Shown here: in pieces, positions 11,947-38,548 of the stretch
Layout of the letters: every line of letters begins with the position of its first letter
Numbering within the stretch: position 1 is the stretch's first letter
DNA from: Lama glama
Lineage: Eukaryota
Direction: 5' to 3'
NCBI GenBank assembly: GCA_028534125.1
Contig: CM052816.1
Coordinates: forward strand, 48,858,001-48,922,000
DNA length: 64,000 nucleotides
Program-made: the position numbers and the translations under genes
Notes under the pieces: model-generated
What the model was told of the DNA's origin: nothing
What the model saw: only the letters and a program-made list of their open reading frames with translations
The model's database searches: none

Positions 11947-13065
11947 AGTGGAGGTATTTCCTGATTTCAAACTTTATTACAAAGCTTTAGCAATCAAAGA
12001 AATATGCGATGGCATAAAAACAAGACACATAGGTCAATGGAACAGAATAGAGAGCCCAGAAATAAGCCAATGCATATATGATCAGTTAATTTATGACAAA
12101 GGAGTCAAGAATATACAATAAGGAAAGGATAGTCTCCTGAATAAATGGTTTTGGTAAAACTGGATAACCATGTGCAAAAGAATGAATCTAAACCCTTATC
12201 TAACACCGTACACAAAAATCAAATCAAAATGGATTAAAGATTTGAATGTAAGACGTGAAACCATAAAGCTCCTAGAAGAAAACATGGTAAGCTCCTTGAC
12301 ATAGGTCTGGGCAATGATTTTTTGGATGTGACACCAAAAGCAAAGGTAACAAAAGCAAAACTAAACAAGTGAGATTATACCAAACTAAAAAGCTTCTACA
12401 AAGTAAACCATCAACAAAATTAAAAGGTAATCTACAGAATGGGAGATAATATTTGCAAAACATACATCTGATAAGAGATTAATATCCAAAATATATAAAG
12501 AACTCATCAGGCAAAAATAATCCTAATAAAAAATGGGCAGAGGAACCGAATAGACATTTTTCCAAAGAAGATTTACAAATGGCCAACAGGTACATGAAAA
12601 TGGGTTCAACATTACTAACCATCAGATAAATGTGAATCAAAGCCACAGTATCGCCTCACACCTGTCAGAATGGCTATCATCAAAAAGATAGGCAGTAACA
12701 AGCATTGGTGAGGATGTGGAGAAAAGGCAGCCCTTGTGCACTGTTGGTAGGACTGTAAATTGGTACAGCAACTATAGAAAACAATATGGAGTTTCTTCAA
12801 AACATTAAAGATACAACTACCATATAGTCCAGCAACCCCACTTTCTAGGAATATATCAAAAGGCAATGAAAAGAGGCTCTAAAAGAGATATATGCAATTT
12901 TCATTGCAACATTATTCACAACAGCCAAGAAATGGAAACAACCAGAGTGTCTGTCAATGAAAGAATGGATAAACAATAAATAAGTGTTTCAAATCAACAT
13001 GTACACCTTAAACTTACATAATGTTATATGTCAATTATATCCCAACAAAGCTGAAAAATACAAAA
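11947..13065 (+). mobile_element. 5'-truncated L1 (L1MA9-like): disrupted ORF2 3' part plus 3' terminus
   Basis: Canonical ORF2 sequence ('caatggaacagaatagagagcccagaaataa', 'gacatttttccaaagaagatttacaaatggccaacagg', 'cacacctgtcagaatggctatcatcaaaaag') and terminal 'gtacaccttaaacttacataatgttatatgtcaattatat'. Confidence 0.92.
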
Positions 13066-24190: not shown

Positions 24191-25116
24191 ACAAAATAAA
24201 TGTATTTATTTGCCATTTTAACAAAGTTCTTGTTTATGTAAAATACTAAAATGAAAGGGGCATACTTACAGGAATGTATAGAAAGATAGCATAAAGATAT
24301 CTGAATGATGAACAAAATGTAGTACCAAGGGATATAAAAAATTAGGTTTACATCGTATTGTTAGTTTCTCTTCTTTTTCATGTCTTCTAGTGTTTGGTTA
24401 TAATTTAAAAGAAGGTCTTGATTGGTTCTGTTCCCCCTAAGAGGACATTTTCTCTCTTAGAGACAATACTGCTTAGAGATAATTCTCGTAGAGACAATAC
24501 CTTTTGAGACAATAGGTGTCTCTAAGAATATACACTAGTTATTGGGAAAGGCAGTCGCAAGCATGCAGTTTTCCGACTCTCCCTCAGCTACACAGAAATG
24601 AGTCTTGGGCCTGTAACACTGCCTTGCAAAGAGACTAAAGAGCTCCCAGCAGCCTGTGCCAGGTTTATCGTTTCCTATGGGAGTACCTTTCCATATTTCA
24701 GGCACAATGAGCTCTCTTTTGTCTCTGCTTAAAGCCGTGCATCATATGGCACCTGGCCAAGCCCACCGTTAAAACTACCTCCTGCAAGAAGCAGAAGCAG
24801 CTTCCTTCCACTGCGGCCCTGAGAGGAAAGCGTGTAGGCCTCCACTGCCAAGAGATCTGCTGGCCACAGGGACAGACACCAACTATCAAAATAGATCTCA
24901 CTTTATTTCTTGTCTGTGTGAGGAAAGCCTTGTTCCATCCAGTGCTGAACATTGTTGCTTTCCTTGACAACTCAAATACCAAGATACAGTGGGCAGAAGT
25001 GTTTGGAGTCCTTCCCAGGAATGGTATCAGGTGCTTGGTACTCTGCTGGATACTAGGACTAGGTGAATTCATGTGGGAGGGCAGAATTTATTTTTGTCAG
25101 ATGACAAAGGCTAAAT

Positions 25117-25309: not shown

Positions 25310-25950
25310 TTCTAAGAAAATAGACAAGAGTGGTGAGAACACTTTTATTTTAAGTTATGTGGAACTGGTTCAAATATTCTCCAGTCTGTTCCTTGATTAG
25401 CTGTGTGACTTTGAGTTATTTACATCTAGGCTTCATTTCTACATTTCTATAACAATTTTATTTTCAAATTAAGCATAGTAATGTATTTTTTTCATATAAC
25501 AACATTATGTGTAAACACTCCCAAGTACTTCCTGGTTTCAAAGGAGCGTGGCATCACCGCCCAATAAAAGCTGAGTCATGGTGCAACTGTCTCATCCAGT
25601 GATGATCCTGTGTGTGTGTGTGTGGGGGGGGGTGTTGTCTCATGTATGGGGACACAAAAATTAGCATAAATTTTTGAAGCCACTGAGCAAATACAGATAT
25701 ATGCTTTCTAATGAACGATTGTTTCAATTCCTTCAATGGAAAAATAAAAGCTTTGTGCATATAAATAGGTATTTTATTTGTTTCTCTGTGGGTTTGTTTT
25801 TACATCTTTGATTGTTATGTGGGAACTTCCGATTTCATTCAAATGCTATGAGTTGTAAGTATTTATTTAATGACCTTTTAATATTTTAATGCATATTACA
25901 TCTTGAGTAACCTGACAGTCAAAGCAAAACATTCACAACTTTTTTTCCCC

Positions 25951-26050
25951 TTCTCTCTTCTCTCTCTTCTCTCTCTCTGTCTGTCTTGCTCTCACTCTCG
26001 CTCTCGCTCACTCTCACTCTCTCTATCTCCCTCAGTCTGTCTTGCTCTCT
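25951..26050. repeat. Degenerate (CT)n microsatellite
   Basis: ttctctcttctctctcttctctctctctgtctgtcttgctctcactctcgctctcgctc... Confidence 0.8.
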
Positions 26051-26328
26051 ACCTTTGCCCTATGATGGTTGTAGAGGATCCTTTCTTCATTCAGCAAGCT
26101 GGCATGTATTTAAATTTTAGCAGTATTGAAGCATATTTATAAGTTTTGAATTTTATGATGTAATTTCTTTTTATCTATTATAACAAAAATTTCCTTCTGT
26201 CGAATTTTTCTTCTCAAGTAATTGCCCTCATGATTAGAGATTTTAAGTATTAAACATTTCTCTGTTAAACCTTTTAAACATTCAAAATTGTCACATATTT
26301 GAGAAACACTTGTGGTCTTGAATACTGT

Positions 26329-26825
26329 TGTGAACAAAAAATACTACAAACCACATTGGTAAACAAAGAATGCTGAAGCCATCAAGTTATCCACAGCTGC
26401 TGCCACCCCACAGTGAAGAAAAGCCTGCAGCCCAGCCTCTGCAGCCACTCACAATGCTGCACTCTGAAGGGACTCAGAATAAGAAAGGACAGGATACTGG
26501 CCCTAGATAGCTAGGTGCTTGTCAAAGAAATGAATTCAATGAGCCCAAATGTTTGCTGCCTCCCATACATAGAAAAGCACTCAATTCTTTAACTTGCTAC
26601 GTCTGGTTTTCTTTAGTTAGCAAGTAATCTTTTATTGTTCCAGCTACCTGGTCTTTGTTGTAAAACTCCTGTATATCCTAGCTCCTCCCCTGCCTCTTTG
26701 GAGCAGTCCCTCAGAGCGACCTGAGAGGCTGTCATCCTGGGCTCAAAGGGGTTTGAGTCCTCAGAAATGTCTGCCAAATAAAACATAACTTCAACTTTTA
26801 GGCTGTGCATTTATTTCAGTCAACA
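26329..26825 (+). mobile_element. ERV1-type solo LTR, family A copy 1
   Basis: TGTGA...CAACA ends, TSD CTGT at 26325-26328 and 26826-26829, AATAAA near the 3' end, homologous to 28045-28486. Confidence 0.93.
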
Positions 26826-26958
26826 CTGTAAATGTACTTAGTAAAACTTTAAGACATTTATTTGTTAATCAAGGCATATTGGGGACTATTTATATTTTAG
26901 ATCAATATGTTATCTCTTTCTCAAAAATTTATTTGAAATATTCATTTCTGCTTAGTAC

Positions 26959-27585
26959 TGAGACAGAAAGGGGGCAGGGCACAGCCATTCAAGGAATGTT
27001 ACAGCAATTAACATCAAAATGGTGAAAGATTCAACCCCCAGAAGGCCTTGAGGCTGAAGATGGTGGGAGACTTAACCTCTAGCAGAGCTTGAGCTTCATT
27101 TTACACCCATTGTAATAGATTAGCATGGTGAATAACATGCCCACAGGCACCACGGCAGTCCCAAGGCTAGCCACAAAAGGTCAAAGAGTGGGAAATGGCC
27201 AACTTCTTGGGAATCCCAGTCTCCTCCCCAGGCTACTTAGACTGGTCCTTCCACTTATTAGCATATGAAGCCACCAAGCCCGTAAAAACTAGCAACACAG
27301 TGCCTCTAGGCTACCTCTCTCTCCCTCTTTGGAGACAGCCCACATTCTGTCTATGGAATGTGTACCTACTTTTAATCTGAGCACCCAACCCCCACACCTC
27401 ATGGCCTTTCTCTTGCCTTTCAATGTATCTCTCTGAATAAATCTACCTTCACTCAACTGTGGCTCACTCTTGAATTCTTTCCTGCGTGAAGCCAAGGGCC
27501 CACACTTGGCATGGCACGTCCCAGGGGCTCAACTGAAGCCTAGCATATGGCCCTTCTCACACCCCACATCCGTTTTCTTGCATCA
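26959..27585 (+). mobile_element. ERV1-type solo LTR, family B
   Basis: TGAGA...CATCA ends, TSD GTAC at 26955-26958 and 27586-27589, 'ctgaataaatc' polyA signal followed by 'ttgaattctttcctgcgtgaagccaag'. Confidence 0.92.
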
Positions 27586-28044
27586 GTACCACAATCCATT
27601 TATATGTCTGAATCTATTGGAAAGGTGTTGTATATTTACATTATTGGTTGAATTATCATTCCTAACATGATTGGTAGGCCAAATACAAACTGAAGAAATT
27701 ATCATCAGAACAACCACTGCAACTGAACAAGGAAATATTACTTAGTGTTGTGTCTGGTCACTTTTGTTACCACTATGTTTATTTTTAACATTTTAACAAC
27801 ATGTTTTCTGTGAAATTTGACATTTCTGTAGTATTTATATTTGCTTTTTTGTATTTTGTTAAAAGTCAGTCACTTAATTGCAGTAAGAATACAAAAAATT
27901 CAAGTCATATTTTCTTTCCAATTACATATGCAAAAATAAATATTGAGTTTTATTTGCTTTTTGTTTCAATTTCCACTGAACAACACCTTTGGTCTTTCAT
28001 TTTTGTTGCCTGATTCACACAAATGTCAAATGTCTATAAAGAGG

Positions 28045-28486
28045 TGTCGACTGAAATGCGCAGCCTAAAAGTTGAGAGTTATGTTTTATTTGGCGGGATG
28101 ACAGCCTCTCAGATCACTTTGAGGGACTCCTCTGAAGAGGTAGGGGAGGAGCTAGGATATACAGGAGTTTTACAACAAAGACCAGGTAGCTGGAACAATA
28201 AAAGATTACTTGGCATCTCAAGTTAAAGAGTTGAGTGCTTTTCTATTTATGGGAGGCAGCAAACATTTGGGCTCATTGAATTCATTTCTTTGACAAGCAC
28301 CTAGCTATCTAGGGCCAGTATCCTGTCCTTTCTTATTCTGAGTCCCTTCAGAGTGCAGCATTGTGAGTGGCTGCAGAGGCTGGGCTGCAGGCTTGTCTTC
28401 ACTGGAAGGTGGTGGCAGCCACTGATGACTTGATGGTTTCAGCATTCCTTGTTTACTGATATGGTTTGCAGTATTTTTCGCTCACA
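28045..28486 (-). mobile_element. ERV1-type solo LTR, family A copy 2 (inverted relative to copy 1)
   Basis: TGTCG...CTCACA ends, TSD GAGG at 28041-28044 and 28487-28490. The reverse complement aligns end to end with 26329-26825, with a few indels. Confidence 0.93.
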
Positions 28487-28639
28487 GAGGCTACCCTTTA
28501 GTCTATAGTGAATAGTCTTAGTGAATAAAGATATTCACTTTAAAAACATCTATGACATTAAAATAAATTATGAATCAGACATGTGAATTATGAAGCAAAA
28601 AAAATAAATTTTGAAAAAGATCATTTTCAGTATTCTTGA

Positions 28640-29990
28640 ACTGAGACCTCACTTCTAGTATCTTTCCTGCCTTCCTAAAGAGATAAACTGATACTTGGAA
28701 TTTTGTTTCCATTACTCATTGGAGTTTGTTTTTTTTTTTTTAATATGTCCATATATCTGGTATCCTTAAGGAATATATCATTTAGTGTTTTTTGGCTTTG
28801 AACTTTAAGAAATGGCATCATGTCTTCATGTTTTAGGTAATATTCTGTAATTATTTCTTTTACTCAACATTATGTTTCTACAACTCATCCATGTTATTGG
28901 TGTAGTAGACTATGCATTTGTTGCTGATAAATGCAACCAATGTTCCAGGTTTTTGTCCCGTCCCAGAAAGAATTCAGAGACTAGACGTAGTGGTTAAAAA
29001 CATAAAGTAAGGATTTATTAAAGGATGGAAGTGCATTCTCGGGGGAGAGCAGGCAGGCTCAGGTAAGCAGCTGCCCTGAGTTTCTTTGGCAAGTTAGCTA
29101 CATTGGATGTAAAAATTAATGGGCAGAATAGTCATTGGAGAGGGAAGGGTTTGGGGTCATATTCCTCTATTATCATCCAAACTCCACCTTCGCAAAGGGA
29201 GGAGGGATTTTTGTCCTTATTTAGTCTGGATCGAAAGTGTCATGGCATCAGTGCATGATGGGTACTTCTGATCTGAAAGTCTAATTTTATTGAAATGAGG
29301 GCATAATGAGCAAAAGGTTACATTCAGACACTGGAAATTCCTGCCTTTTCTCACCTTTCTTTGTTCTTCTCCAGGCCACTTGTTACCCCAAAAAGCATGA
29401 TCCCTTATCAGCCCAAAGGTTTCTGCTTTTCTTTCTCTGCCCAGGGACCCCTGCTGCTTACATGATGTTTGGTTTCCTGCATTTGGTTTGTGCCCCTCCT
29501 TTCTGCCCAATTCCTGCCATTTGGTCTGTGTCCCCCTTTCTCTGCTCATATCTAGCTATCTGCCTGCTCTAACACATTCATTTTCAGTGCCTTAAATATT
29601 CCATTGTGTGCAAACACTGTAATTCACTTAACCATTTCAAGTCAATGAATATTTCTCTTACTTATTTTTTTATTATTTTAAAATTATTTTGCTATTATAG
29701 GAAGTACAAATATATTTTGTACCTATCTCTTGGCATATATAGAATAATTTTTCTAAGCCATATACTTAAGGGTAAAATAACTGTAAAAAGTTTGTAAATG
29801 TTCGCCATGACAAGATCATTCTAAATTATTTTTGAAGAGCTTATACCAATTTACAATCTTATTTTTGATAAATTAGAATTATCAATATTTTGATTTTTGT
29901 CTATAATTAGTATCATTTGACTTTTTAATTGCTGCCAGTATGATGAGTATAAAAAATATACCTAAGTGATCTTAGTTTGTATGTCTCTCT
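28640..29990 (-). mobile_element. Old L1 3' fragment (L1ME-like) interrupted by an LTR
   Basis: 'ttttactcaacattatgtttctacaactcatccatgtt...' continues after the LTR as 'cattcattttcagtgccttaaatattccattgtgtg'. Confidence 0.6.
28919..29574 (-). mobile_element. ERV1-type solo LTR, family C
   Basis: TGTTG...TAACA ends, TSD CATT at 28915-28918 and 29575-29578, 'tttatt' (AATAAA on the minus strand) near 29014. Confidence 0.9.
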
Positions 29991-33077: not shown

Positions 33078-34090
33078 TTTTTCAATTGAAGTATAGTCAG
33101 TTTACAAGGTTGTGTCAATTTCTGATGTACAGCACAATGCTGTAGTCATACATGAATATACATATATCATTTTCATATTCTTTTTTTACCATAAGCTACT
33201 ACAAGATATCAAATATAGTTCTCTGTGCTATACAGTATAAACTTGTTTTATCTATTTTATATATCAGTCAGTATCTGCAAATCTCAAACTCTCAATTTAT
33301 CCCTTCCCATCCCTTTATCCCCGGTAACCATGTTTGTTTTCTATGTCTGTGAGTCTGTTTCTGTTTTATAAATAAGTTCATTTGTCTTTTTTTTAGATTC
33401 CATATATGAGTGATAGCATATGGTATTTTTCATTCTCCTTTTGGCTTACTTCACTTAGAATGACATTCTCCAGGGACATCCATGCTGCTGAAAATGGTAT
33501 TATTTTTTATGGCCGAGTAGTATTCCATTGTATAAATATACCACAGCTTCTTTATCCAATCATCTGTTGATGGACATTGAGGTTGTTTCCATGTCTTGGC
33601 TATTGTAAATAGTGCTGCTATGAACATTAGGGTACAGGTGTCTTTTTGAATTAAGGTTCCCTCTGGCTGTATGTCCAGGAATGGAATTGCTGGATCATAC
33701 AGTAAGTCTATTTTTAGTTTTTTGAGGAATCTCCATACTGTTTTCCACAATGGCTGCACCAAACTGCATTCCCTCCAACAGTGCAGGAGGGTTCCCTTTT
33801 CTGCACACCCTCTTCAGCATTTATCATTTATGAAGTTTTAGTGATGGTCATTCTGACTCATGTGAGGTGATACCTCATTGTACTTTTGATTTGCATTTCC
33901 CTGATAATTAGTGATACTGAGCATTTTTTCACGTGCCTATTGGCCATTTGGATGTCTTCATTGGAGAATTGCTTGTTTAGGTCTTCTGTCCATTTTTGGA
34001 CTGAGTTGTTTGTTTTTTTCTTATTAAGTTGTATGAGCTGTTTATATATTTTGGAAATCAAGCCCTTGTCAGTCTCATCTTTTGCAAATA
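33078..34090 (-). mobile_element. 5'-truncated lineage-specific L1 (ORF2 C-terminus plus 3'UTR)
   Basis: ORFs 33858..34061 and 33451..33762 translate to the L1 ORF2 C-terminus ([42 protein letters not shown]...[18 protein letters not shown]), followed by a 3'UTR ending 'ttgaagtatagtcagtttaca' on the + strand. Confidence 0.95.
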
Positions 34091-36641
34091 TTAAATGCTT
34101 TTGACCAATAATAGAATTTTGACATAGATAAGCTGCACTACGACCCCTTCATCCTGTCATAGAGAGACAAAATTCCTGTCTCTTTGAAGTCTTGGTTTAT
34201 TATTTTCAATGTAGTAATAGTTATTGTAATGTACCCAAACTATATCATCCAAATGAGGAAAATCCCACACATAGCTTTAATGATTTGAATTGAAAAAATG
34301 AAAAATGAATAAGGATTATTTAAACATCATTCTATATAATTAAATATGATTTTTCAGCTTTCCAATTCCATTTACCAGCATGTGACAATTGATGATGATG
34401 TTAAACTAGGAGACAAGTCCTAGAACCATAAATAGGAAAATTAGGAATTTTACCTTGAATCATTTTAATCATTTTACTGTCATTCATAACAACATACATG
34501 TCAGTTATTTAACACTTCACAATTAAGTGGATATTTAGTAGTCATGGCTCTGGAAGAAATTACTAAGAAATAGTAATGAGTGTATGTTTTTAAGAATTTC
34601 TCTAATTTTTCTATAATTAAGGCACTTTTTCATCAGATGATTATATTCCTTTACTGCTTAACTAGTATTAATTTGCTAGCTCTGCTCCAAGGGATTATTA
34701 ATTGAATAGATTATTAAATACTATCAAATTCCAACTGTGTTAACTCCATAATTTTTCTACATTCATTGAAGTGATTGGTTAATATCTGAAAGGTTTATGC
34801 CATCAGTAAAAATGAATGACTAACCTAGTGTCATGATCTGTCCCTACATTGCTAACTGAAAATATAAAATTACCTTTGCTGACCAAGCTGAGAAACTCTC
34901 ATTCACATTAAATCAAAATGAAATGTTAGAATTCAAGAAAATTGAATTGGCTGATAAATTGCATCCTGAATGTCTCTTCAAATATTGTGAGTAATTGTAA
35001 TAGGGAAACCCTCTGGCACATGGCAGCTTCTTGCAAAATTAGGAATGACTAAGTTTGTTTTGTTGTGTAAGAAGACAAATTTGGCAGTGCTTTAGTTATC
35101 ATGAAAAGGTAGAGATGCTCTTTAACATTATTTAAAAATATATTTTGTTTCTCATGATAAGGAGAAAATAAGAAGTATTTAAGAAACCTTTTTGGATTTC
35201 AAAGATAAAGGAAAATTTCTGTTTCTGTATTTTAGGATCTATAAAATTTATTTAAAACTTTTCTGTAACCATGTTTCAAAAGTTTTAATGAATGGAATAT
35301 ACCATTTCTAATTTAAATTTTCAGTTTGCATTCATTTTTCTATTGGTTTACTTGTCATGATAAATAACATGTTGGAATAAAGTGGATAATGTTGAAATAA
35401 ATATTTGCCTGGCCCAAGGAGTTAGAGACCTAGAGATTAACTAGTAATGTCTAATACAGACCAGTCTCCATTTTTTCTCTTGATGAATGGTGTTTAGTTG
35501 GTGATAGTAAAGTATGATTAAAAGCAGTTTTGTTCAATAGGAAAAAATGGGTTTTGAGAGAAATGTGTGTTTAAGTCCTGGCATACTGCTTACCTGGTTA
35601 ATGACTATGGATTAGTCATTTGTTCTCTGATCCTAGGTATAAATAGCAGTAAAAAATGGATATTGAAAATTATTTCTTACCTAATGTATTCTGGTAAAAC
35701 TTAATAATAAATTTACTGTGGAGAACAAAGAGGGTGGTAGATGTTAAAGTGCCTGGTAAAAACAAAAGCTTTAAGAGAATATTAGTTTTCCATATCTATA
35801 TTATTGTTATTTGTAATCCTTATATAGTCCATATTTTTCTCTTTATTTTCACCCAACCATAAAAATTCTGAGCTGATAGAGTACAGATTTTATTAATATT
35901 ACTTTTATTTCAGAGAAAACAAAATTAACCCCTATTTTTTTGCTTTGGCTGCCAATAGGTCTCTAAGATCTCACTTGTGAAATGTCTTTATTTTAACCAC
36001 ATCCTAAAGGTATGCTAAAAACTTTGAAAATGATTTCAGTGTTGCTGTTGAGATTCTAACTCCTGCTGAATCAAAAGTATAAATCACTATAAATATGGAA
36101 GTGCCTAAATATTTTTTAAAAGTATATTCTCTTCATTTTTTGCAATAGAATGACATGTAAATCAAGTATCACTTTTTAAGGTTTTTCAAGTAAGTTCGAC
36201 TCATTAATGAATTTATTTTACTTGATGAGTACCAGCTCAATCTCTCTCATTCACTCGTAAATTAATAAATGAAAACTAAAGTGGTTTTCTTTTTGAAAAG
36301 ATGCTATTTAGTAGAAAAAAGTTCTAGTCTTTATGATTTGGCTAAATTTCTGTAGCTTGATAAATTGTGTTGGTTTGTTTTGTTTATTTATTAATGATTT
36401 TCCCAAAGAAGAGGAATTCTGAAGAAACTATTTGTTATATGTTTTATATTTTCTTATTTGTCTGGGGATTGACTATTTAAAAACCTGATGATTTCCCTTT
36501 TTTTTTAAGAAAGAAAACTGTTCTCAGAGAAAATGATTTTTGTATAGCTGCTGATGAAAACACCCAGGGACAGTTCTCTCTCTCTCTTTTCCCTATTCTG
36601 TAATGTACAGCATCTCCATTCTGGGCCAATAGATATTTTTT

Positions 36642-38548
36642 GAAGTATTATTTGATTTACAATACTACATTAGTTTCAGGTGTATAGCATAGTGATTCAG
36701 TATTTTTACAGATTATACTCCATTAAAAGTTATTACAAGATAATGGCTATGATTCCCTGTGCTATAAAATATATCCTTTTGTTTATCTATTTCGACATAA
36801 TAGTTTGTATCTCTTAATCCCATACCACTATCTTGAGTCTTCCTACTTCCCTCTCTTCACTGGTAACCACTAGTTTGTTTTCTATATCCATGAGTCTGTT
36901 TCTGTTTTGCTATATACATTTTCTTATTTTATTTTTTCGATTCTACATATTAGTGTTACTATACAGTATTTGTCATTCTCTATCTGACTTATTTCACTGA
37001 GTATAATATTCTCTAGGACCATCCACACTGTTGCAAATGGCAGAATTTCATTCTTGTTTATGGCTGAGTAAGTAATACTCCATTGTATATATGTACTACA
37101 TCTTCTTTATCCATTTGTCTGTTGATGGACACTTGGGTTGCTTCCATACCTTGCCTATTGTAAGTAATGTTGTTATGAGCATTGATGTGCATGTATCTTT
37201 TCAGATTAGTCTTGTCTTTTTTCTTTTCTTTCCTTTTTTTTTTTTTTTTGAATCTATACCCAGGAGAGGCATTGCTAGATCATATAATAGTTTTATTTTT
37301 AATTTTTTAAGGAGCCTCCATGCTGTTTACCATAGTGGCTGCACCAGTCTACATTCCCACCAACAGTGTACCAGGTCTCCTTTTCTCTATATCCTCTCCA
37401 ACATTTGTTATTTTTAGACTTATGGGTCTGATCCCAAGTTGCTGGAACAGAAGCCCTGAAAGTTGGGCCCAGGTTGGCTCTGTTTCCTTTAAGTGTGAGT
37501 TTTCCCTCCTCCCTGCACCAAGACCTGTGCCCCAGAGTGGTGGAGTGCTGAAGCAAGTAGGGCCAAGTGGGAACTCGTGGCTCATGTTGGCTGCAGACAA
37601 GACTCCAGCGTGTTGCCTCTGCAGGCACCCAAACTTATTTCCCTCATTCTGCTCAGATGGAGCCTGTGTGCAATCCCCCTTGTCTTTCACAGCTGGCTGC
37701 TGCCTTCAGCCTTCACCGCCCCAACCCTTTGTGGTACCACACTGCAGGGCAGGCAGGGCTCACCTGAACTCTTGACATTTACTGAGAGGTTAACTGTGGT
37801 GGAGCAGCCATTGTCAGAGATGTGGCCTGCTGCAGATGCACTGCTTTACTAAACGCCAACAATGGGTGCCACCATCCCTTCCAGGCTCTGCCTTTGGACT
37901 TAGTCACCTCTGCATCTGAAGGTCTAGTCTTCTTTCAGATCATGGCCACCTTAGATCCAGTGCTGCACTGTGATGTGAAGTGAGTGAGGCTGGAGTCTCA
38001 CTTGACTTGGGCTGGGGTGTGCACCTAGGTGGTTGTGGGGAAAACCAGCAGCAACTAGAGCAGACTTCTCTTTGCCCTGTCTCTGGGACAAGGCAGCATG
38101 TGTGTCTTCTTCAGGAACTGAGTCCAGGCTTGGCACAAGCCAGCATGCGTGTGCTCTTCAGGAGCTGAGTCCAGACCTTCCACAGTCCTCCTGTTAGTCC
38201 CATGGATTCTGCTTGTATCCCTCAAATAGAACCCCAGAACTGTGGCACCCAACCTGTGGCTCTCATTGCTCACTCCCCAGGGTGGGTGTGCCCCTGTGTA
38301 TTCTCCTTTTTCCTCTGAGTCCCCTTTGAGTGGCACAGGTCCTGACCCAACCAAATTACTTTTCTTCCCTTTCTACCCAATTACCTGTGTATCTGTCTTA
38401 ACAGCCTTGGTTGTACAGGAATCATTCTGCCAGTTTCCACTTTAGTTTTCAGTGAGAACTGTTCCAGAAGTAGATGTATTTTTGATGTGTTGATGGGGAA
38501 AGGTGAGCTCCACATCCTCTTACTCCACCATCTTGATCAATCTTCTCT
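36642..38548 (-). mobile_element. Internally deleted L1: 5'UTR (~37423-38548) fused to ORF2 C-terminus/3'UTR (~36642-37422)
   Basis: The minus strand starts 'gagaagattgatcaagatggtggagtaagaggatgtggagctcacc...aaaaatacatctac', an L1 5' end. The 3' part encodes [15 protein letters not shown]...[11 protein letters not shown] aatagatatttttt (36628-36641) / aatagacatttttt (38549-38562). Confidence 0.85.

Follow-up and report, generated by a model that had tools for sequence, protein, structure and literature searches.

Two solo LTRs in opposite orientation

The window considered here, meaning the whole 64-kb stretch of llama DNA that was analyzed, has a GC content of 33.9%, a CpG observed/expected ratio of 0.14, and zero N. 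It contains two solo long terminal repeats (LTRs) of one family, inserted close together and in opposite orientations. Copy A lies on the forward strand at 26329-26825. It is the longer form, with a length of 497 bp, TG...CA ends, and an AATAAA motif on the same strand at 26777-26782. Copy B occupies 28045-28486 on the reverse strand and measures 442 bp, again with TG...CA ends; two blocks present in copy A, of 18 bp and 34 bp, are absent from it. Each copy has its own target-site duplication (TSD), given here as read on the forward strand: CTGT at 26325-26328 (left) and 26826-26829 (right) for copy A, and GAGG at 28041-28044 (inner) and 28487-28490 (outer) for copy B. In both cases the match is 4 bp long and fails at 5 to 7 bp. 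Because the two TSDs differ, A and B were inserted independently. On rechecking, the coordinates, strands, and TSDs recorded in a preliminary description of the locus proved exact to the base, and the spacer between the arms, put there at about 1.2 kb, measures 1,219 bp.

What kind of element left these copies? Both combine TG...CA termini with a short TSD and have no internal region, as expected of solo LTRs. A TSD of 4 bp is, we take it, typical of ERV1-type elements, and this suggests that A and B are ERV1-like solo LTRs. Besides A and B, no further copies of the family were found in the 64-kb window.

The spacer itself contains a third solo LTR, absent from the preliminary description and belonging to another family, at 26959-27585 (627 bp, TG...CA ends, TSD GTAC). 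Its orientation appears to be forward, judging from an AATAAA motif at about 27438, and a BLAST comparison of this middle LTR with A and B gave no match. With the middle LTR and one copy of its TSD removed, the arms would stand about 590 bp apart. Two other LTR-like segments were noticed by eye, with approximate boundaries, at ~24420-25060 and 28946-29572 (the latter TGTT...AACA, forward), which would bring the number of LTR-like inserts to five in about 5 kb. A degenerate CT-rich microsatellite occupies 25945-26050, about 280 bp upstream of copy A. Farther away, repeat fragments at 12447-12976, 33193-34093, and 36727-37413, which are presumably L1-like 3' ends, form two pairs that are 69 to 70% alike, one direct and one inverted. 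The longest identical runs in these pairs are 18 and 15 bp, and the pairs are too diverged to make a good control for the LTRs.

Is a gene nearby? A Pfam scan of 11 of the 15 stop-to-stop frames of at least 110 amino acids in the window returned no match. Short exons escape such a scan, so the LTR pair could lie within an intron.

Tracts of perfect identity between the arms

Aligned over 409 columns, A and B are 88% identical, and this identity is distributed very unevenly. Tract 1, a stretch of 147 bp at 26421-26567 (forward) in A, matches 28248-28394 (reverse) in B exactly; tract 2, a stretch of 71 bp at 26621-26691 (forward) in A, does the same with 28142-28212 (reverse) in B. The next longest exact runs are 18, 17, 16, and 15 bp. 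Between the two tracts lies a zone that appears unconverted, 26597-26620 on the forward strand of A, which includes the 18-bp block absent from B and in which six letters of A depart from most of the family depth. An identical island of 16 bp (26569-26584, forward, in A and 28231-28246 in B) adjoins tract 1, bounded by single A/B differences at 26568 and 26585, 17 bp apart; it may be what is left of an earlier conversion. The rest of the arms looks quite different. Over the first 92 bp there are 19 mismatched positions, a 46-bp segment toward the 3' end (26692-26737) differs at 7 of 46 sites, and outside both tracts and the indel zones as a whole, 30 of 207 aligned sites differ (~86% alike). 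The two perfect tracts and the divergence of these two end segments had all been described from hand alignment, and each was confirmed at the positions and counts claimed.

Could such runs arise by chance? In a shuffle test, the 35 differences (29 substitutions and 6 gaps) were scattered over 444 sites in 200,000 trials. A run of at least 147 bp appeared once, and two runs of at least 71 bp appeared in 91 trials. Tract length beyond the expectation from background divergence is a mark of gene conversion, and tract 1, at 1/200,000 shuffles, has it. CpG-type changes make up 10 of the 29 A/B substitutions, and at 26699/26700 the CpG has decayed on opposite strands in the two copies; from these changes it follows that A and B have aged separately. 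At 26568 and 26704, B carries changes that are missing from the family variant list of one DNA run (X1, below), a list that is complete for those kinds of change.

One further feature of copy A may be mentioned here. A perfect 8-bp inverted repeat (26592-26599 and 26618-26625), with a loop of 18 bases, coincides with the cluster of nonfamily letters and with the 18-bp gap of B. It may reflect a small template-switch (quasi-palindrome) event, a weak indication that chance could also produce.

Rare letters shared inside the tracts

Identity alone does not say whether A and B resemble one another or merely their family, and the preliminary description had proposed looking for shared nonconsensus bases. 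Contigs of the family, taken from four public runs, were aligned at 80% likeness to copy A and the sequence on either side of it. This yielded 5,285 contigs from X1 (DNA), 5,333 from X9 (DNA from a second organism), 876 from X15 (whose RNA status is a guess), and 1,157 from X16 (RNA). The LTR family proved to be large, diverse, and dispersed, and its copies have a 3' end in common, with 110 loose contig ends starting at 26825 in X1. By likeness to A, 311 of the X1 contigs are at or above 99%, 1,009 are between 95 and 99%, 2,228 are between 90 and 95%, and 1,737 are below 90%. The same description had pointed out that unrelated copies equally identical across the tracts would speak against conversion. 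This is not what was found: ten long, tract-overlapping family contigs, hand-picked among the 32 listed of 12,784, are 10.5 to 19% off A, with the qualification that the longest contigs are biased toward diverged copies.

The comparison of letters draws on the best 40 of 91 rows of a variant table, apparently those in which a share of about 60% was reached in some run. Five flank rows, two rows high in X15 only, and one merged duplicate were removed, leaving 32 LTR positions among the rows listed; seven rows of middling share and six from the indel zone were also removed before the final count. At 25 of the 32 positions, at least 70% of the depth in both X1 and X9 is off A's letter. Four of these positions fall in tract 1 (26457, 26468, 26528, and 26558), three in tract 2 (26643, 26665, and 26671), one in the island (26582), six in the indel zone, and eleven outside. 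Among the rows listed, B carries A's rare letter at all eight tract and island sites and has the common letter at every one of the eleven outside sites (0/11 shared). The proposed test thus came out as conversion predicts, with eight rare letters held in common inside the tracts and island and none outside. At 26457, 26468, 26558, and 26643, the remaining family depth is only 0.3 to 1.1% in X1 and X9. None of the eight shared letters is flagged as CpG type.

How much weight can these counts bear? A Fisher test of 8/8 versus 0/11 gives p = 1.3e-5, a value that is partly circular because identity itself defined the tracts; the weight rests on the rarity of the letters. The family shares were obtained by summing contigs weighted by depth, a measure that gives young, collapsed subfamilies a large influence and loses rare variants. 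What is left at the rarest sites corresponds to about 25 to 70 single-copy depths, which may conceal a small subfamily carrying these letters. Subfamily structure is evident elsewhere as well. Several family sites are split at 40 to 63%, and the 34-bp block missing from B is also skipped by other family copies, so part of the flanking difference between the arms is probably a subfamily difference that predates insertion and not a product of age. A and B probably belong to different subfamilies.

Several simple sources of the shared letters were considered and rejected. An invariant family core would explain identical tracts, but such a core would hold no rare letters. If A and B descended from one rare parent, rare letters would be common outside the tracts too, and they were found at 0/11 sites there. 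Parallel CpG decay is contradicted by the absence of CpG-type sites (0/8). Local duplication of one copy in inverted orientation is contradicted by the differing TSDs and by the recurrence of B's 34-bp gap in other copies. Short patterns derived from the window had 0 matches in viral contigs, metagenome contigs, and prokaryote genomes, and blastn with copy A gave no match against phages and plasmids.

A stem-loop without a demonstrated role

If the region were transcribed, the arms would be predicted to fold into a structure with 417 arm-to-arm pairs, including one 147-bp helix, at -1053 kcal/mol. This value has no shuffle control, and a fold of this kind is expected of any inverted repeat. 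The preliminary description had gone further, suggesting that conversion maintains a long stem-loop that could serve as an ADAR substrate. That suggestion is unsupported: there was no sign of read-through transcription, in contigs that are unable to show either read-through or editing. The RNA run X16 has no contig cover over either flank, from contigs that cannot show absence, and X15 has one 248-base contig, over the left flank only. A>G places number 13 in X1, 13 in X9, 12 in X15, and 13 in X16, and because contigs cannot show editing, these counts are no evidence either way. The X15 contig, which stops before the LTR, differs from the left flank (26063-26303) by 5 letters and 1 gap in 242 (~2.5%), versus 0 in X1 and X9; X15 is therefore probably a more distant relative.

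Probable gene conversion and its rivals

We consider it quite probable that the tracts arose by local nonallelic, non-crossover gene conversion between the arms, in one or more events and without net inversion. This part of the original interpretation stands, on the strength of rare letters shared in the tracts only and of intact TSDs, while the maintenance of a stem-loop, the ADAR substrate, and the potential inversion-polymorphism site are unsupported. The reasoning from the TSDs to the absence of a net inversion holds. Both pairs match, as had been noted, whereas a crossover between the arms would give CTGT/CCTC and ACAG/GAGG. There has thus been no net crossover, although an even number of crossovers is compatible with the same TSDs.

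How might the tracts have come about? The two LTR elements would have integrated independently and in opposite orientations, as the TSDs show, and both would then have been reduced to solo LTRs. One copy may have suffered a break or a stalled fork that was then repaired off the near neighbor, by a process of the synthesis-dependent strand annealing (SDSA) type or by a fold-back template switch. The 18-bp indel zone would have ended the copying or been passed over, and the product was presumably neutral. The arrangement of the tracts on either side of this zone, along with an island that carries a rare letter, would fit either a single patchy event or a series of events that bypass large heterologies. 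The 218 bp of the tracts hold 0 differences, and if the rate is taken as 2.5e-9 to 2e-9 per site per year, the last conversion event is probably less than about 2.8 to 3.4 million years old. The camel rate given in the available text of PMC8605555 (2.5e-8 per generation, with five years per generation) leads, by our own arithmetic, to about 1.4 million years. Which copy was the donor? Nonmajority letters of A number 11/178 outside versus 8/247 inside (P = 0.03), which faintly suggests B as the donor. This candidate was not accepted because 16 other A/B differences lie outside the rows listed and many of them may be B's own.

Might the identity exist in the assembly alone? Reads from one copy could have been used to fill or polish the other, and mate-anchored gap filling can recruit reads from 1 to 2 kb away. 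No contig among those listed spans a tract plus unique flank, and the best public runs contain only 0.71 to 0.77 of the words sampled from 26060-28700. Such an artefact would, however, have to jump between the copies at least four times in 271 bp, where they otherwise differ by about 14%, and to do so around a zone that keeps A's own letters; it would also have to place a shared rare letter in a 16-bp island between two differences 17 bp apart. Cross-mapping, with thousands of family contigs involved, would also be expected to drive letters toward the common state, not the rare one. The window has no N, and X1 and X9, from two organisms, show 0/327 differences over A's left flank and its first 58 bp. 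A's left contig ends at 26386 in both DNA runs, a shared break which indicates that the 30-mer there also occurs in another copy. We regard an assembly or polishing artefact as improbable.

The remaining rivals accept the identity as real and explain it without a simple conversion. A and B might come from recombinant sources with a common core and be neighbors by chance, with no exchange since. Subfamilies are indeed evident, in the split sites, the recurrent 34-bp gap, and the contig break at 26386, and the 25 to 70 single-copy depths left at the rare sites leave room for a suitable source. Yet the shared letters make up no more than about 1% of depth at four sites, and two members of so rare a class would hardly be expected to land 1.2 kb apart. 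Moreover, separate aging outside the tracts should have struck the 218 bp inside them as well; the probability of 0 differences there is 0.012 at 2% aging, 1e-4 at 4%, and 1e-10 at 10%. A mosaic origin is therefore very unlikely. We give equally little credence to an inversion followed by reinversion, in which an even number of arm crossovers restored orientation and TSDs and left the tracts as by-products. Inverted repeats are able to mediate inversions, the TSDs exclude only odd numbers of crossovers, and two separate tracts are compatible with two events. Against this, no inversion allele was seen, in short-read contigs that are blind to breakpoints inside an identical tract, and even Y palindrome arms of >99.9% identity show 3 inversions versus 146 conversions in the available text of PMC3723533. 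Selection for a long RNA or DNA stem-loop, as an ADAR substrate or regulatory structure, could appeal to the predicted 417 arm-to-arm pairs and unbroken 147-bp helix. Selection alone cannot create shared rare letters, however, which need a copying step, and the Pfam scan found no match in 11/15 long frames (short exons would escape it); we find this explanation scarcely credible.

Significance and comparison with known systems

Taking non-crossover conversion as the preferred explanation, what does the locus mean? It records a single, probably neutral event, with neither a gene nor a function linked to it. As a single-locus case of conversion between insertions of independent origin it is unusually clear, the TSDs themselves proving that no net crossover took place, and it is a reminder that LTR similarity can misdate or misclassify neighboring copies. 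The odd point is that the arms are only about 86% alike outside the tracts, under the ~92% usual for conversion. One speculative answer, which we put forward while thinking it rather unlikely, is that the tracts stem from repeated fold-back events, in which a single strand at a fork or resected break anneals arm to arm, is corrected or resynthesized, and stops at large indels. Three features of the arms suggest this route: they are inverted, they would lie only about 590 bp from each other without the middle LTR, and they are too dissimilar for classical recombination to work efficiently. Repair of a break on the neighbor and intrastrand fold-back are indistinguishable from sequence alone. If fold-back were true, close inverted pairs of solo LTRs would provide a genome-wide fossil readout of orientation-specific, low-identity germ line conversion in mammals. 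Were similar tracts to turn up frequently in close inverted pairs under the usual identity threshold, the locus would gain weight, and fold-back with it.

How does the pair compare with what is already known? A literature search of titles and abstract openings, mostly of papers outside subscription and without supplements, turned up no conversion between inverted, independent solo LTRs. Close counterparts are neighboring Alus, for which nonallelic conversion is described as raised within 10 kb in the available texts of PMC6598467 and PMC8230782, citing Aleshin and Zhi 2010, and in passing in PMC3670932. The Alu pairs resemble A and B in being independent insertions less than 10 kb apart, with shared nondiagnostic mutations, clustered changes, and a dependence on distance. 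They differ in that the Alu result is a genome-wide statistic, whereas the present case concerns inverted camelid solo LTRs at a single locus with long perfect tracts. The Alu conversion signal is reportedly stronger for parallel pairs.

LTRs are known substrates, too. Human LTRs, both solo and flanking HERVs, undergo ectopic conversion with maximum tracts of 14 to 450 bp and a mean of 99 bp (Trombetta et al. 2016, PMC4921805, as far as its text is available). The likeness extends from the LTR substrate and the patchwork pattern to tract sizes that fall in this range and a preference for linked donors (PMC4921805). The human evidence differs in consisting of polymorphic SNP clusters with dispersed donors, whereas the partner in the present case is an inverted neighbor; neither "inverted" nor "orientation" appears as a word in the main text of PMC4921805. 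Closer in host, the available text of PMC8605555 reports camelid full-length LTR retrotransposons with intraelement LTR-LTR GENECONV tracts in 1,765 to 1,908 elements per genome. These share with the present pair the host group and the presence of tracts between two LTRs, but they involve the 5' and 3' LTRs of a single insertion, which are in direct orientation and start out identical (PMC8605555), whereas A and B are two inverted insertions with different TSDs.

For geometry, a parallel is found in the Y palindromes (P6), which also have inverted arms and conversion without inversion, as given in the available text of PMC3723533. Their arms are >99.9% identical with a mean tract of 2,068 bp (PMC3723533), whereas the arms of A and B are shorter than 0.5 kb and 88% identical. 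Human interlocus conversions of the MESH/MEPS class form a group to which the pair is not assigned. Efficient conversion is associated there with ~92% similarity and >200 bp of uninterrupted homology (PMC3966225, available text). A and B lie below these thresholds, with 88% identity overall, about 86% outside the tracts, and no other run longer than 18 bp. Conversion between neighboring Alus and between LTRs is already known, and the A/B pair is a clean new example of it.
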